Of a DNA stretch of 63,687 nucleotides, positions 16,158-22,026 are shown piece after piece. How positions within the stretch are numbered: the stretch's first letter is position 1; every line of letters begins with the position of its first letter. Source of the stretch: Cyanobacteria bacterium RYN_339 (GTDB taxonomy: Bacteria; Cyanobacteriota; Sericytochromatia; S15B-MN24; JAQBPE01); NCBI GenBank assembly GCA_028287685.1, contig JAQBPE010000080.1, positions 1 through 63,687 on the forward strand. Reading direction: 5' to 3'. Under the pieces are notes generated by a model, which was not told where the DNA came from, made no database searches, and worked only from the letters and a program-made list of their open reading frames with translations. The position numbers were made by a program, and so were the translations under genes.

Positions 16158-16646
16158 ATGCTAAACGTTGGCGACAAGTTCCCAAGCGTCTCGCTTGAAG
16201 GCACCCAAGGCGGCGAAGCCAAGCGCTATAACCTGGGCGATCCGTCCGGCAAAATCCGCGTGTTGGTCTTCTACCCCTTCGCCTTCACCCCCGTTTGAAC
16301 GCGGGAACTGCCGGACGCGAATTCCAAGTTATCGGAATTCAGCGCCCGCAACGCCGAGGTCTTCGGCGTTTCCATGGACAGCGTTCACACGAACCGGGCC
16401 TATGCCACTGAAATTGGCGGCCTCGGTTACCCCCTGCTCTCGGATTGGAACCCCCACGGCCACCTGGTGGATCAGCTCGGCATCCGCGTCGCGGAGAAGG
16501 GCTGTCCCAGCCGGACCACCGTGATCGTGGACAAGGATGGCGTCATTCGCGACATCCAGACGAACGCGCTCGGCGACGACCGCGACTTCGACGTCACGTT
16601 GGCGAAGGTCGCCGAGATCAACCAGGGGGAGGCGGCGGGAAGCTAG
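16158..16646 (+). CDS. Peroxiredoxin (AhpC/TSA, AhpE-like) with in-frame TGA at the peroxidatic Cys; probable selenoprotein
   Basis: AAGGAGGAGG RBS and ATG 16158. Reads MLNVGDKFP...LVFYPFAFTPV[TGA 16296-16298]TRELP...VFGVSMDS...YPLLSDW...RTTVIVDKDGVIR, in frame with ORF 16374-16646. Confidence 0.88.
16311..16349 (+). promoter_or_regulatory. Candidate bacterial SECIS hairpin
   Basis: GAATTCC(16319-25)-aagttatc-GGAATTC(16334-40) stem, extendable by CGC/GCG across a bulged A; loop lies about 27-30 nt after the UGA. Confidence 0.65.
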
Positions 16647-18565
16647 CTTAGCTCCAAGTAGCCCCGGCGACGCACGATCCCTCGTGCGGTTTCGCCGGGG
16701 CTCGCGCATTTCGCGCACTCCGCCACCGGCGCCGCCGTGTGGCCGCAGCCTTGGCAGATGGATAGCGGGAAGTCCAGGGCGTAAGCCCGCACGCCCGCGG
16801 CCGCGGCCGCCTGCACCCGGGCAATCGCCTGCTCGGCGGGCAACGTGGTGGGCTGCACGTCCCGGAAGACGCAGCCACCCGCGAACAGCGGCGCGTAGGC
16901 GCCCTCGATCGTCAGGCGCTCGTGCCAGGCCAGCCCGGCATCCGCCGGCAGCGACACGCCCGCACTGTAACCGGGCATCTCCGTCACGCCCTTGATCAGG
17001 CCGAACTCGCGTCGGTCCAGGCGCGCGAAGCGCTCGCTCACGCCGTCAGCATCGGCCGACTGCAGCACCAACCGCACGCCCAGCTGATCGCCCAGTTCCG
17101 CGCAGAGCGCGGCGGCCCGGCGGATGATGGTAAGGCCCTCGGCCTGGACGGACGGCGAGCCACCATGGTGTTCGCCCGCCAACACGACCAGGGCCTGCGC
17201 CAGGCCTACCAGCCCGATGGCCAGCGTTCCCTCGCGCAGCACATCGCGGATCGGGGCTTCCGGCGTCAGGGCGGCAGAGCCGTTCCAGAGGCGCTGGCCC
17301 ATCAGGAAGGGGAAGTCGGCCGCGGGCCGGGCGCCCAGGGCATCCAACCGGTGGACGAGGTGTTGGGCGGCCACCCGGATGGCGGCGTCCAGCGCCTGGT
17401 GGAAGTCGGTGGCTTCGCGGCGCGCCGTGAGGGCCAATCGGGGCAAGTTCACGCTCAGGCGGGCCACCTGTCCGACGCCGGTGCCGGCACCCACGCGGGC
17501 TTCATGCCCCGCATAAGCCACGCCTTCGCCGTCATGCACGAAGGTCACCAGCCGGCGGTCGCAGGCCAGCTCGACCGCCTGGCGCGTCAGGTCGAAGTTG
17601 GGGTCGCCCGGGTTCAGGTTCACGCCGGCACGAAGCAGGAAGACGACGTGGGGCCGCAAGGCCGCCTCGCCGCGACCCAGGCCCCGGCCGGCAGCCGTCA
17701 GCAGGGCCCGCGTGACCTCACGCCCCAGCGGGCTAACGTCGAGGCCGACCTGCAAGCTCGCGTAGGGCAAGTGGTCGCCGCCCTGAACGGACATTGTATT
17801 GAGGTTGTACACCAGGGATTCCATGGCCTGGTCCAGCTCGGCGGGCGTGGTCTGGGCCGGCAGCACCGTGGCCAGGTCGCTGTCGAAGGTGGCCAAGGTC
17901 TGGCCGCCATGGCAATCGGCCTGGGCGGCCTGGAGGATCACGGAGGTCAAGGCGGCGGCGGAGGCGGCGCGCTTCGGCGCCCGCATGAAGCCGTGGCCGC
18001 TGGCGAAACCATCTTGCAAGAGCCGCAAGTAAGGCACGACGAAGCCGTGGGGCGCCTGAGCGTAGTCCGCGAGTCCGTGCAGATGGATGGCGCCAGCCTC
18101 ATGGGCCTCCGCCATGGCCTCGGGCAGCACGCGGTTCATGTAGAACTCGCGGCTAGCGGCCACCCCGATGGCGGCGCGGCGCCAGCGGCTGCCGGCGGCG
18201 CGCGCCGGGGCCTCGTCGTTGGAGAGGATCTCCGCCACGGTGTCCATCAACTCGCTCTTGCCTTCGCGGATGCGGCTGCGGCGGGCACGGTAAAGGATGA
18301 AGGCCTTGGCCGTGCGGGCGTGCCCGTGCTCGATCAGGACCTTCTCGATCGTGTCCTGGATGGTCTCCACGGTGGGGATCTTGCCGGAGGCGTCGGTGCC
18401 TACCCGGCGCAGCACGTCCTGGGCCAACTCGTCGGCGAGGTTGTAGTCGGAACCCTGGACGGCTTGGGCGGACCGCATGATGGCGGCCACGATCTTGCTG
18501 CGGTCGAAGGCGACGATCCGTCCGTCCCGTTTTTGGATTTCCGAAATTTCCCGCGCCATGACCAT
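16643..18565 (-). CDS. ATP-cone plus class III ribonucleotide reductase (NrdD)-like protein lacking catalytic cysteines
   Basis: ATP cone (KRDGRIVAFDRSKI); NrdD scaffold motifs NLNTM, PGDPNFDL, NLPRLA, FPFLMGQ, HHG; CxxC...CxxC; terminal RGYL. TCC and YMGCR equivalents are replaced. Confidence 0.85.
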   Translation of the reverse strand: MVMAREISEIQKRDGRIVAFDRSKIVAAIMRSAQAVQGSDYNLADELAQDVLRRVGTDASGKIPTVETIQDTIEKVLIEHGHARTAKAFILYRARRSRIREGKSELMDTVAEILSNDEAPARAAGSRWRRAAIGVAASREFYMNRVLPEAMAEAHEAGAIHLHGLADYAQAPHGFVVPYLRLLQDGFASGHGFMRAPKRAASAAALTSVILQAAQADCHGGQTLATFDSDLATVLPAQTTPAELDQAMESLVYNLNTMSVQGGDHLPYASLQVGLDVSPLGREVTRALLTAAGRGLGRGEAALRPHVVFLLRAGVNLNPGDPNFDLTRQAVELACDRRLVTFVHDGEGVAYAGHEARVGAGTGVGQVARLSVNLPRLALTARREATDFHQALDAAIRVAAQHLVHRLDALGARPAADFPFLMGQRLWNGSAALTPEAPIRDVLREGTLAIGLVGLAQALVVLAGEHHGGSPSVQAEGLTIIRRAAALCAELGDQLGVRLVLQSADADGVSERFARLDRREFGLIKGVTEMPGYSAGVSLPADAGLAWHERLTIEGAYAPLFAGGCVFRDVQPTTLPAEQAIARVQAAAAAGVRAYALDFPLSICQGCGHTAAPVAECAKCASPGETARGIVRRRGYLELS

Positions 18566-18787
18566 GAGTGACATAACCTCTCTATGATGACCTGTAAGCC
18601 AATGCACCACGCGCGTCATGAGCGTGTTCGGCTGCTGAAAACCCGCGCCGCGCCCGTGATTTAAGTCATGACAAGCTGGGGTACATGTGGGAAAATGATG
18701 CCAATCATTCTACACAAAGGCGCCTGATTTCCGCAGTTTCCGCGATCTGGAAATCGACCTGGCCTGTGCAACGGAGGACGACAACGA

Positions 18788-21064
18788 ATGCGTAACCGCC
18801 TGGCTTACCGCCAATTGCTGGTTTCTTGCTTCGGATTGGGAATGGCCATGGGCGTTGTCCCTGGCTCCGCTTCGGCGGCACAGCCCAGTAAGGTCGGCTC
18901 TGTGAGCTACGATCAGGCCCATCAGGCCCTGGCGATCCCCGTCACGGGGCAAGAGCCGAAGGTGCAAGTGCGCCGGCTGGCCCCGCACCAGTACGTGGCG
19001 GATCTGGGCAACTGTGTGTTGGCCCGGTCGGAGGTTCAGGGGCAGCGGATGCATGGCCCGCTGCTGGCCGGCTGGTCGCTGGATGAGACACCCACCGGTC
19101 AGACCGTCCGGCTGCGCCTGACGCTGAACCAGGACGTCGATCCCCAAATCCGGTTCGTCCGGCAGGGCGGCGTGATGCTGATGACCTTCGGCGGCCGCCC
19201 GGTCGCCACGGTGGCCGCAGCGACGACGGCGGCCAAGCGCCCTGTTGCCACGGTGGCCGCCGCTGTGAAGCGCACAACCCCCGTGCTTCCCAAGGTAACG
19301 ACCAAGTCCCAGCTGGCTTTCCCTACCGCCGCGCCGGTTCCGGTGCACCTGGCGGAAGGCCATCTTCGCTCCGACGTGCCGCGCTATGTCGGCCTGCAGC
19401 TTAACACCGCGACGCACGCCGCCCCCAAACCGGCCCGTACCCTCGTGGCGACGCACCACGCCGCGGCCCATCAGGCCGTGAAGCCCGCCACCAAGCCCCC
19501 CTTCCCGTTGATGTTGGCCGGTCGCAACCTGCCGTTCGCCGTTCCGGCCCAGGCCGCGGCGCCGGTGCTGCCGGCGCCGCGCATCCCGGCCGGTCTCGCG
19601 ATGCCCGGCGTCGTGGCACCCCTGGCCTCCGCCCCGCAGTTCGCCTCGCTGGGATCCGCCCGCTACGACGCCAAACGCGGCGTGCTGGTCATCCCGGTCA
19701 GCGGTGAGTTGGATCCCAAGCGGCTCGAAATCGTGCAGCTGAACAAGCGTTGGGCCTACCTGGACGTCCCGGCGAGCATCCCCAACTTCTCCGGCGTGAA
19801 GTTCGAGGAACGGGCGGACAAGACTTTCCAGCGCTGGGTGATGGCCAAGCGCCCCAATCGCAACACCACCCGCCTGTCGTTCGCCCTGGGCGCCGCGGCG
19901 AACTTCGACGTCAAGCTCGAAGGCAAGGAGTTGCTGGTGACCGTGCGGCCGCAGGGTGACCTGATTGCCAAGCAGCCGAAGGCTTCGGCCCCGGTGGTCG
20001 CGGCCAAGCCCGCAGCGCTGGTCGCCGTTGCGCCGGTCGTTACCGCGCCGATCGTTTCCGTGCCCGTGGCCGCTCCGGTGGCGCCTATCGCCGCCAAGCC
20101 GGTGGTCGCGCCTGTCGCGGCCAAGCCGGTGGTCGCGCCGGTTGCGGCCAAGCCGGTCGTTGCCGTCAAGCCGGCCCCGATCGCCCAGCTGCCCGTCGCC
20201 AAGCCCGCTGCCAAGCCGACCGTGGTGCTGGCCAAGGCCCCGGTGCCGGTGAAGGCGCAAGCCCCGGCCAAGCCCACCACCATTCTGGACCGCCCGTTCT
20301 TCGACCAGGAGCGCCACGGCCTCGTGGTCCCCTACACCGGCGAGATCCCGCTTTACCGTTGGAGCAACCAGGAAGACGCTTCCGTCGCCCTGGAAGTGAA
20401 GGGCGCCGCCTCCGTGGCCGGCGAGCTGGAGCAGTCGTTCAAGCAACATCCCGTGATGAAGACCTGGCGCGTCGGCCCCGACGCGGCCGCCGGCACCGTA
20501 CAGTTGGCGATGACCTTCCGCCGGCCCTCCGAAGTGGTGGTCGCGGTCGACACCGCCCGCCGGCAGCTCCTGTTGATCCCCCAGCCCCGCCTCACCGGCG
20601 AGCAGGTGCCGACCGCCGCCGCCCCGACCACCACCTTGTCGGCGGTGAAGCTGCCGGCCGACGGCCAGCGCCTCTACATCTCCTTCACCGGCAAGGTGCC
20701 CGCCTACACCATCGAGACGGTCAGCTCCCAGTTCGCCTACATCAACTTCGAGGCCGCCAAGCTGGAGACCAAGTCGGTTCAGTTCTTCGCCCCGGACTTC
20801 CACCCCAGCCTGAACTACTGGCTGCTGTCGGAGCGCCCGCTGCAAGGCGGCGTGCGCCTGGCCCTCGCCCTGACCCAGGCCGGTGGCCCCTCCGTCTTCG
20901 AAGACCGCTCCAACCAGCGCCTGGTGATCGAGCTCGGCGGCGACGACACCCAAGTGGGCGCCCGCAGCAAGCCCTCGTTCCCGGCGCCTTGGCCCGGTGA
21001 GCACGCCCCGACGGGCTACCAGCCGGCGGACCCGCTGGTGAAAGTCAGCCGGAAGGCGAGCTAA
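18788..21064 (+). CDS. Secreted protein with four AMIN-like repeats and Pro/Ala linkers
   Basis: Signal peptide; repeated YDxxxxxLxIPxxG...YxD...W...VRLxLxL units. Confidence 0.65.
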   Translation: MRNRLAYRQLLVSCFGLGMAMGVVPGSASAAQPSKVGSVSYDQAHQALAIPVTGQEPKVQVRRLAPHQYVADLGNCVLARSEVQGQRMHGPLLAGWSLDETPTGQTVRLRLTLNQDVDPQIRFVRQGGVMLMTFGGRPVATVAAATTAAKRPVATVAAAVKRTTPVLPKVTTKSQLAFPTAAPVPVHLAEGHLRSDVPRYVGLQLNTATHAAPKPARTLVATHHAAAHQAVKPATKPPFPLMLAGRNLPFAVPAQAAAPVLPAPRIPAGLAMPGVVAPLASAPQFASLGSARYDAKRGVLVIPVSGELDPKRLEIVQLNKRWAYLDVPASIPNFSGVKFEERADKTFQRWVMAKRPNRNTTRLSFALGAAANFDVKLEGKELLVTVRPQGDLIAKQPKASAPVVAAKPAALVAVAPVVTAPIVSVPVAAPVAPIAAKPVVAPVAAKPVVAPVAAKPVVAVKPAPIAQLPVAKPAAKPTVVLAKAPVPVKAQAPAKPTTILDRPFFDQERHGLVVPYTGEIPLYRWSNQEDASVALEVKGAASVAGELEQSFKQHPVMKTWRVGPDAAAGTVQLAMTFRRPSEVVVAVDTARRQLLLIPQPRLTGEQVPTAAAPTTTLSAVKLPADGQRLYISFTGKVPAYTIETVSSQFAYINFEAAKLETKSVQFFAPDFHPSLNYWLLSERPLQGGVRLALALTQAGGPSVFEDRSNQRLVIELGGDDTQVGARSKPSFPAPWPGEHAPTGYQPADPLVKVSRKAS
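20090..20164 (+). repeat. 27-nt coding tandem repeat (AAKPVVAPV, about 3 copies)
   Basis: gccgccaagccggtggtcgcgcctgtc / gcggccaagccggtggtcgcgccggtt / gcggccaagccggtcgttgcc. Confidence 0.85.
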
Positions 21065-21927
21065 GCTCCCGTCCGAACTCCCGATGAAAGCGCGGCCTCG
21101 AGCCGCGCTTTTGCTTTAGGCAGGAACCCGCGCGGCAGCTCGCCGGCCCCGTGCGCCGGGAAGGCATGGTTCCAGGGCTCCGCCAGCAGCGCCCGCGCCT
21201 GGGCCTGTTGGAGGTCCCAGTCGTAGGTCCAGTCGAAGCGTTCGGGCACGAGGGCGTCGCCCTGGGGCAACAGGTGGTCCCCCACGAACAGGCAGCCGCC
21301 ATGGCGGCGCCAGAGGAGGCAGCTCGAGCCGCGCGTGTGGCCCGGGGTGTGGATCACCTGGAGGTCGTCGGCAAAGGCGTGGGTGCCCGTGAAGGCATGC
21401 GCCACGGCCAGCTGGACCTGGTCCGCCTCCGACTCATGCATGATCACCTCCGCCCCGAAGTGGAGCTGGAAGTCCTCGACCTCGCCCAGCGTGTCCTCGT
21501 GCGTGACGAAGATGTAGCGGAGGTCTCCCAGGGCCTGCAGCTGCGGCAGCAGATCCTGGTGGAAGGCCGGCAGGTCGACCAAGACGTTGCCATCGGGGCG
21601 CACGATCAAGTAAGCGTCGGCGTCGTCCGTCAGCGGGCTGGGGTGGCCCAAGGCGAAGAGGCCCGGCAGGAGCTGGCGGATAGGCGGGGGACCCTCCAGG
21701 TGGCCGTCCGCGCCGATGGCGCCGACGGGGCAGGTCTCTTTCGCTCGCTCGCAGGCGGCGATCGCCTCCGGGGTCTCCGGCTGGCTGAACACCCACGAGT
21801 GCCCGGCCTCGTCCCAGCCGAAGTGCTCCGGCGCGATCCGGCGGCAGCGCTCGCAGTCGATGCACTTGCGGTCGACATAGAAGACGCCATCGACGTTCTG
21901 GGGATATCGGAGGTCTTTGCGGGCCAT
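21061..21927 (-). CDS. Ferredoxin plus MBL-fold metallo-hydrolase
   Basis: CIDCERC...CPVGAI Fe-S motif; THED, HTPGHT, GDHL, PAHG. Confidence 0.85.
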   Translation of the reverse strand: MARKDLRYPQNVDGVFYVDRKCIDCERCRRIAPEHFGWDEAGHSWVFSQPETPEAIAACERAKETCPVGAIGADGHLEGPPPIRQLLPGLFALGHPSPLTDDADAYLIVRPDGNVLVDLPAFHQDLLPQLQALGDLRYIFVTHEDTLGEVEDFQLHFGAEVIMHESEADQVQLAVAHAFTGTHAFADDLQVIHTPGHTRGSSCLLWRRHGGCLFVGDHLLPQGDALVPERFDWTYDWDLQQAQARALLAEPWNHAFPAHGAGELPRGFLPKAKARLEAALSSGVRTGA

Positions 21928-22026
21928 TACACCTAGCTTACCCAAATGTCCAAACAATACTGGGCGGGGCGGACCGGGGCAAGCGCCTTGGCTTCGTATA
22001 ACTTTACAATTAGAAACCTGGAGGCC

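Follow-up and report, generated by a model that had tools for sequence, protein, structure and literature searches.

In this article we describe nrdD', a gene on contig JAQBPE010000080.1 of Cyanobacteria bacterium RYN_339 (63,687 nucleotides, analysed at full length and called the window below). Its product, NrdD', is very probably a descendant of the class III ribonucleotide reductase (RNR) NrdD that has become non-catalytic and is kept by selection. Judged from its alignment with canonical NrdDs, the protein would be incapable of the known class III chemistry, yet it is maintained, and what it conserves is the scaffold and the two regions by which a real NrdD senses nucleotides. As for its function, we see about an even chance that NrdD' is an ATP/dATP-sensing protein in the control of deoxynucleoside triphosphate (dNTP) supply.

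The NrdD' protein and the reductases of its genome

The nrdD' open reading frame (ORF) extends over 16643..18619 on the minus strand, and its first ATG gives a protein of 658 amino acids (aa), to which residue numbers refer unless the 643-aa numbering is indicated. The public gene call (P0002) begins at 18574, while the end coordinate 18565 used in an earlier reading of the window, made from the sequence only and without naming a strand, corresponds to a start at Met19 (~640 aa). That sequence-only reading had described an uninterrupted ORF of about 640 aa collinear with class III RNR, and the Pfam search bore it out: the minus-strand ORF encodes an ATP-cone covering profile positions 3-87 of 88, followed by NRDD (PF13597) at residues 153-655 (9.7e-85), and no DNA-binding domain was detected in the protein by Pfam. 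The GC content at third codon positions (GC3) is 0.87 in the nrdD' frame and 0.74 in the overlapping plus-strand ORF, the former value being the coding signature of a GC-rich genome.

The protein is 40-42% identical to canonical Bacillota NrdDs and stays under the cut-off of all NCBIfam NrdD equivalog models (the best is NF005497 with 468.6 bits against 764; TIGR02487 gives 254 against 326.35). By phmmer, the solved relative closest to it is an NrdD from Prevotella copri which likewise carries an ATP-cone (8p23, 2.5e-63). The AlphaFold2 model, built on 61 aligned sequences, reached a mean confidence (pLDDT) of 92.2 and a predicted template modelling (TM) score (pTM) of 0.86, and Foldseek retrieved with it the P. 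copri and T4 NrdDs at TM 0.72-0.82, the P. copri match having an E value of 1.9e-37 at TM 0.75.

The catalytic requirements of this enzyme class are described best for the P. copri NrdD, in which Cys416 and the beta-A cysteine, Cys171, are both necessary for the radical mechanism, the substrate is held by the NxN flap, the HxHD motif and a loop ending in Glu581, and Asn298 of the specificity site reads the effector (PMC11226230). The radical cysteine of the finger loop stands in an MGCR or MCCR motif (PMC9669993), and 92.6% of 1,375 class III sequences share the beta-A cysteine, the remainder not being discussed in the accessible text of the two phylogenetic reports (PMC9669993; PMC9531940).

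We aligned the window protein with its 70 best database matches, 35 of which are canonical NrdDs. These 35 read HIHDLD..K T L N/T C and YMGCRTR where the window protein reads HLHGLA..APHGF and YAGHEAR. His372 stands under the MGCR cysteine, the Met of the same motif is replaced by Ala, and Gly192/Phe193 are found under the beta-A cysteine; in P. copri numbering, the position of Cys416 is occupied by His and that of Cys171 by Gly/Phe. Alignment to characterised NrdDs, which the earlier reading had proposed as a check, thus puts His372 and no Cys at the finger-loop tip, and the AlphaFold2 model agrees, with His372 at the tip of a hairpin. The replacements which that reading had described at HIHD/beta-A, the finger loop, TPAE and YTNSFH are all present in the protein (HLHGLADYAQAPHGF at residue 179, YAGHEA at 369, SADAD at 521 and YSAGVS at 551), and the NxN flap and the Asp of HxHD have to be added to the losses it listed. 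Its remarks on the retained parts also hold: the ATP-cone is there, the RxxGY motif was found behind a Cys4 zinc ribbon (CQGC at 622, CAKC at 635, RRRGYL at 650), and the protein ends right after the Gly loop, its C-terminus (...GYLELS) lying three residues past GYL while canonical relatives extend 20-30 residues further. The kept elements are accordingly the ATP-cone signature, the QAME..YNLNT stretch, the Cys4 ribbon and RRRGYL, and the KRDG..F..KI signature of the cone is preserved in all aligned proteins of the order to which the window's genome belongs. Effector binding may be retained at the old specificity site, as we infer from the conservation of this stretch.

The genome is a metagenome-assembled genome (MAG) of 6.99 Mb in 506 contigs, 95.4% complete and 6.7% contaminated. 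Searching it with the PF13597 profile returned nrdD' as the sole match; the one PF02867 match is NrdJ, a B12-dependent class II RNR (NF006417, 1020.6 bits against a cut-off of 961), from which the deoxynucleotides of this bacterium should come. The only ATP-cone in the genome is that of nrdD', NrdJ being cone-less. No NrdB was found, and neither TIGR00244 (NrdR) nor the Gly_radical domain had a match in the genome. As the sequence-only reading had noticed, no nrdG adjoins nrdD', and the wider search of the 95.4%-complete genome for a canonical nrdD or nrdG found none: the best NrdG scores were 21.2 bits on TIGR02491 (cut-off 126.1) and 40.7 bits on TIGR02495 (cut-off 131.15). Two canonical Bacillota relatives served as a positive control, and their NrdG, encoded beside nrdD or elsewhere in the genome, reached 128 and 125 bits with TIGR02491. 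The control genomes score low on TIGR02495 and TIGR02826, which are thus unsuited to the NrdGs of this NrdD lineage, and we therefore relied on TIGR02491 and on an NrdG protein of the cognate type. With the NrdG of a canonical relative as query there was no match at E<=1e-5 in 23 of the order's 27 genomes, among them that of the window; one of the four matched genomes owes its match to PflA beside PflB, and two others (G006 and G016) to NrdG-like proteins considered below. Similarly, tblastn of the window's genome with two NrdGs, two NrdG-like proteins and one NrdR gave nothing at E<=1e-3.

Descent and selection within the order

The comparison covered 61 related genomes, and the order consists of the families f1 (that of the window), f2, f3 and f4. 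A homologue of nrdD' is present in 7/7 related genomes of f1, 1/1 of f2, 10/10 of f3 and 7/8 of f4, and in 0/20 genomes from other families of the class. The order is represented in the collection by 27 species genomes and the gene occurs in 26 of them, the one miss being a genome of 64% completeness; there is no internal stop in any nrdD' match of the order. The small genomes of family f9 gave weak matches to NrdDs of canonical type, and they are the sole genomes among the 61 with an NrdG over the cut-off. The source names on the nearest database proteins are those of Sericytochromatia and of UBA8530-type non-photosynthetic cyanobacteria.

In a quick IQ-TREE maximum likelihood gene tree, from which G004, G005 and G022 were left out as fragmentary or very divergent, f1, f3, f4 and the canonical Bacillota set each occupied one side of a branch with a support of 97-100, and the stem of f1 was long (0.67). 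This pattern agrees with a single ancestral nrdD that was passed on vertically and evolved faster in some lines. Taken together, the comparisons show vertical inheritance of nrdD', under purifying selection, throughout an entire order that probably belongs to Sericytochromatia.

The loss of catalytic residues is graded. The beta-A cysteine is absent from 26/26 aligned proteins of the order, and the other elements differ by lineage. The f2 protein keeps the finger cysteine (SGC), the NxN flap, HxHD and the full glycyl-radical domain; in f4 and in genera g8 and g12 of f3 the finger cysteine and RxxGY/GW are kept and the flap is lost. Gly-Tyr is lost in two further genera of f3, in one of which (g14) the finger loop reads GGGM, while in the other (g10) the whole loop is deleted. 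The tail is cut off in f1, Gly-Tyr is lost in G002, G006 and G007, and the finger tip is His or, in G004, Asp and, in G007, Gln, the loop being lost in G005. Among the metagenomic members of the window's clade the tip is His in 22/24 and Phe in 2/24, and four clade members (P0017-19, P0022) are without the zinc ribbon yet have RRRGYL.

The ratio of nonsynonymous to synonymous substitution rates (dN/dS, omega) was estimated by the method of Nei-Gojobori. It was 0.09-0.34 in nine of ten within-genus pairs; in the tenth, G004/G007, the synonymous sites are saturated and no ratio was obtained. The lowest values of all pairs (0.09-0.10) belong to the loop-less genus g10 (G013, G023, G026; L042, L041, L040). 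Within f1 the ATP-cone appears to be the most constrained part of the protein, its omega being 0.04 against 0.25 for the core in the pair G002/G006, and 0.28 against 0.43 in the pair G000/G003. Simple decay is therefore ruled out by the low dN/dS, the constrained ATP-cone included. The proposal of the earlier reading that the active site was lost with the scaffold kept, and not by decay, has stood up well, given the spread of the intact gene over the order and dN/dS values of 0.09-0.42.

Possible functions of NrdD'

Since the ATP-cone is the most constrained part and is the sole ATP-cone in the 8 genomes of f1 (exactly one match in each, that in nrdD', against two or three in the genomes of f2-f4), a sensor role fits best. 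According to this model the cone of NrdD' would bind ATP or dATP, the old specificity site would probably take up dNTP effectors, nucleotide binding would alter the conformation or oligomeric state of the protein as in real NrdDs, and the signal would be relayed to the dNTP-supply system, with NrdJ, NrdR (in the sister families) or another protein as candidate output partner. In f1 NrdD' is the only remaining ATP-cone protein, alongside the cone-less NrdJ, nrdR having been found in none of these genomes. The sensor was one of three roles suggested by the sequence-only reading. The second, that of a partner which regulates a true NrdD, can be discarded here, since PF13597 matches nrdD' alone in this genome; the third, a glycyl-radical protein with different chemistry, is unlikely, as no activase was found and relatives exist without Gly-Tyr (G002, G006, G007) or without the zinc ribbon (P0017-19, P0022).

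Several observations weigh against a selected, non-catalytic sensor. The dN/dS between the window gene and those of G003 (0.42) and G001 (0.39) is only moderately low, at dS of 0.8-1.1, which is near saturation. The gene in f1 is not beside nrdJ or any nucleotide-metabolism gene. G006 and G016 carry an NrdG-like radical S-adenosylmethionine (radical-SAM) gene on other contigs, below the cut-off (115.8 and 86.8 bits); sub-cut-off matches of 88-119 bits also occur in relatives without any NrdD homologue. In an assembly of the completeness and contig number given above, the absence of nrdG and nrdR means that they were not found, and is not proven. The sensor model leaves the retention of RRRGYL and of the zinc ribbon in this lineage unexplained. 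Finally, polar residues have become newly fixed among 21 sequences of the clade, namely His357 (90%), Arg307 (90%), His309 (76%), His347/Asp348 (76%) and Arg416 (100%; all in the 643-aa numbering), and they might point to a new site for a ligand or for catalysis.

The linkage with nrdR has to be considered in this respect. Wherever f2-f4 genomes had an nrdR match (18/19), it lies directly upstream of nrdD' on the same strand, with a spacing from a 4-nt overlap to ~160 nt (10 nt in genus g10), and the outer flanks vary by family, with PrmA and an HD protein in f4, and LspA and DivIC in f3; no radical-SAM gene is near these loci. The arrangement indicates a two-gene operon in three of the four families, and the ancestral genomic partner of nrdD' is the gene of a nucleotide-sensing repressor. 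It is conceivable, although we hold it to be improbable, that NrdD' is primarily a partner or modulator of NrdR, for instance through cone-cone hetero-oligomers which tune repression, and that f1 keeps a remnant of this. The linkage to nrdR is the only one conserved over f2-f4 while the flanks differ, the 4-nt overlaps seen in some genomes suggest coupled translation, and ATP-cones drive oligomerisation in both NrdR and NrdD (PMC9110341; PMC11226230). However, an ordinary nrd gene regulated by NrdR would also adjoin nrdR, and nrdR was found in none of the 8 genomes of f1, yet nrdD' is kept there under selection; an NrdR partnership is therefore impossible in f1 as the sole function, and plausible for f2-f4. 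Complex prediction with the NrdD' of G011 and its NrdR scored 0.00 against a mark of 0.32, which gives no verdict either way. NrdR boxes were searched for with a consensus that is maybe unfit for this phylum, allowing up to 3 mismatches, and there were 0 matches upstream of nrdR (6 sister loci), in the window and upstream of nrdJ.

Equally unlikely in our judgement is that the old barrel has acquired a non-radical catalytic or ligand site made of fixed His, Arg and Asp residues, and serves as an enzyme or receptor for a different molecule. The clade-specific replacements, that is the finger-tip His in 22/24 members and the further fixed residues listed above, are conserved and not random, and the core of NrdD' is under purifying selection, both of which speak for such a site; but the newly fixed residues do not persist in the sister families, nor throughout f1, where the tip is Asp or Gln in two genomes and the loop is lost in G005, as it is in genus g10.

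That NrdD' is still a glycyl-radical RNR with unusual residues and an unrecognised activase is very improbable: it retains RRRGYL, the zinc ribbon and the barrel, but it is without either of the cysteines that are necessary in the P. copri enzyme (PMC11226230), without the Met, the NxN flap and the HxHD Asp, neither NrdG nor any other glycyl-radical activase turned up in the genome, and close relatives have no Gly-Tyr motif. A decaying pseudogene that is still open, because high GC yields long chance ORFs, and in a lineage whose omega is higher than that of the sister families, is hardly credible in the face of full-length, stop-free orthologues in 26/27 genomes of four families, a dN/dS well under 1 in every pair yielding a ratio, a confident fold (pLDDT 92) and the coding GC3 signature.

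A bolder form of the sensor model would have a dead class III RNR, the sole ATP-cone protein of the cell, act in trans as an allosteric or regulatory subunit which senses dATP/ATP and controls the cone-less NrdJ or its expression, replacing the near-universal NrdR in f1, with ATP-cone pseudo-NrdDs forming a widespread and hitherto unrecognised layer of dNTP control. We regard this extension as a long shot.

Genomic surroundings and relation to known systems

The features of nrdD' and of the genes around it are collected in Table 1.

Table 1. Positions in the window of nrdD', of its domains and motifs, and of the neighbouring features
Feature	Position	Strand	Remark
nrdD' coding sequence, 643 aa and stop	16643..18574	-	658 aa if begun at the in-frame ATG further upstream (18619)
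15-nt motif	18598..18612	-	25-40 nt upstream of the nrdD' start; kept in 4 to 5 of 6 family genomes aligned
ATP-cone domain, residues 28-115	18275..18538	-	Pfam 1.1e-20; KRDG...F...KI signature retained
NxN flap position, linker	18164..18238	-	RENANxxNSPSAK of canonical NrdD replaced by a variable Ala/Arg/Gly-rich stretch
HxHD/beta-A region, HLHG...APHGF	18041..18085	-	Asp of HxHD replaced by Gly; beta-A cysteine by Gly/Phe
QAME..YNLNT stretch, conserved	17795..17830	-	counterpart by alignment of the P. copri specificity-site region, which includes Asn298
Finger-loop tip, YAGHEA against canonical YMGCRT	17498..17515	-	His372 for the thiyl-radical cysteine, Ala for Met
SADAD in place of the TPAE substrate-phosphate loop	17045..17059	-	by alignment
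YSAGVS in place of YTNSFH	16952..16969	-	by alignment
C-terminal Cys4 zinc ribbon, CQGC...CAKC	16706..16756	-	by sequence
RRRGYL, former glycyl-radical loop	16655..16672	-	predicted hairpin tip; sequence and AlphaFold2 model
AhpC/peroxiredoxin-like gene	16158-16646	+	convergent with nrdD'; the stops of both overlap
In-frame TGA of the peroxiredoxin-like gene	16296-16298	+	FTPV-TGA-TRE
Gene of a 758-aa protein	18788-21064	+	divergent from nrdD'
4Fe-4S ferredoxin domain fused to a metallo-beta-lactamase fold	21061-21957	-	also in G001

The 15-nt motif, which may be a promoter or operator, is conserved in G002, G006 and G007 and weaker in G003; in the window's genome it has a single occurrence at up to 1 mismatch and is not shared with nrdJ. 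Rfam gave 0 matches on the window. The surroundings of nrdD' are syntenic across five genera of f1, with GHL10, HAD, FliJ/FliK and peroxiredoxin genes on one side, and on the other a divergent protein of 760-830 aa without known family, then subtilase and DUF4350. The divergent protein has no Pfam or NCBIfam match in the window and was seen in the same position in 5/5 family loci examined (G001, G002, G003, G006, G007), with a length of 690-840 aa. In the peroxiredoxin-like gene the in-frame TGA stands where the peroxidatic cysteine is expected, and an identical TGA is present in G003 (L131) and G001 (L138); two tRNA-SeC genes were detected in the genome by aragorn, and a hairpin begins ~13 nt past the TGA (z -2.16). 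The gene probably encodes a selenocysteine peroxiredoxin truncated by ORF callers.

Compared with the class III NrdDs that carry an N-terminal ATP-cone (P. copri 8p23/8p2c and the MGCR-type Bacillota enzymes), NrdD' has the same fold and the same domain order, that is ATP-cone, linker, 10-stranded barrel, zinc ribbon and Gly-Tyr hairpin, and the sequence of the cone and of the specificity site is conserved. It differs in being without the radical Cys, the Met, the beta-A Cys, the NxN flap, the HxHD Asp, TPAE, YTNSF and the C-terminal tail, in that no NrdG was found for it, and in scoring below every NCBIfam NrdD cut-off. With NrdR it has in common the combination of an ATP-cone with a Cys4 zinc ribbon and, in the sister families, an operon with nrdR, and the ATP/dATP sensing for dNTP homeostasis proposed here would be NrdR-like. 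The homology is limited to the cone, however, since the ribbon of NrdD' is C-terminal and of the type found in the glycyl-radical domain of NrdD, whereas NrdR itself (TIGR00244) is a protein of ~150 aa with an N-terminal DNA-binding zinc ribbon followed by the ATP-cone, and NrdD' does not qualify as one.

Searching genome and metagenome contigs with peptide patterns gave canonical NrdDs only (5 loci; 80 of 212 kept, at 32-37% identity), therefore no close DNA pair is available for the window gene. Among the 150 best of 5,136 representatives at 50% identity (E<=1e-3), ~23 have a non-Cys finger and 51 are complete for Cys/Cys/Gly, in a census of uncurated pairwise local alignments where inteins and distant sequences give gaps; all 25 of the 25 Cys-deficient representatives checked consist of ATP-cone and NRDD. 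One "Cys-less" entry of this census, P0254 (904 aa), is possibly misaligned; with an ATP-cone, NRDD and a Fer4_12/Radical_SAM domain at its C-terminus, it has the appearance of an NrdD-NrdG fusion. Many of the long NrdD representatives (P0136-P0269, 900-1,700 aa) read SHN-C-RTR at the finger loop, an intein pattern at the radical cysteine, and a Dethiobacter NrdD fragment (L142:2004-3395, minus strand) matches intein C-terminal splicing.

Cys-less ATP-cone NrdDs thus appear to extend beyond this order and to be common among the nearest database relatives. They share with NrdD' the theme that the cone is kept and the radical residues are lost; NrdD' is distinguished from them by its zinc ribbon and Gly-Tyr hairpin, by a family where nrdR was likewise not found, and by graded losses within one order. 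The NrdD' of the window is not unique, but it belongs to an unusually informative evolutionary series. Our full-text literature searches found no published description of an NrdD or ATP-cone pseudoenzyme, and nothing relevant that joins Sericytochromatia or cyanobacteria with RNR terms; the accessible portions of a 2026 review of glycyl-radical enzymes make no mention of pseudoenzymes or non-catalytic members (PMC13450708), and those of the two reports on RNR phylogeny contain no discussion of dead NrdDs (PMC9669993; PMC9531940).

RNRs are among the most studied allosteric enzymes, and NrdD' offers a natural dissection of one of them, in which the catalytic site has been erased and the nucleotide-sensing sequence is under selection, the gene being wired to nrdR in three families and standing alone in the fourth. 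For genome annotation it should be emphasized that the label "anaerobic ribonucleoside-triphosphate reductase", which sequence sources attach to these proteins, would falsely suggest that Sericytochromatia-like bacteria make dNTPs anaerobically. Should the sensor reading be true, NrdD' would open up new modes of dNTP-pool control in a way that can be tested.

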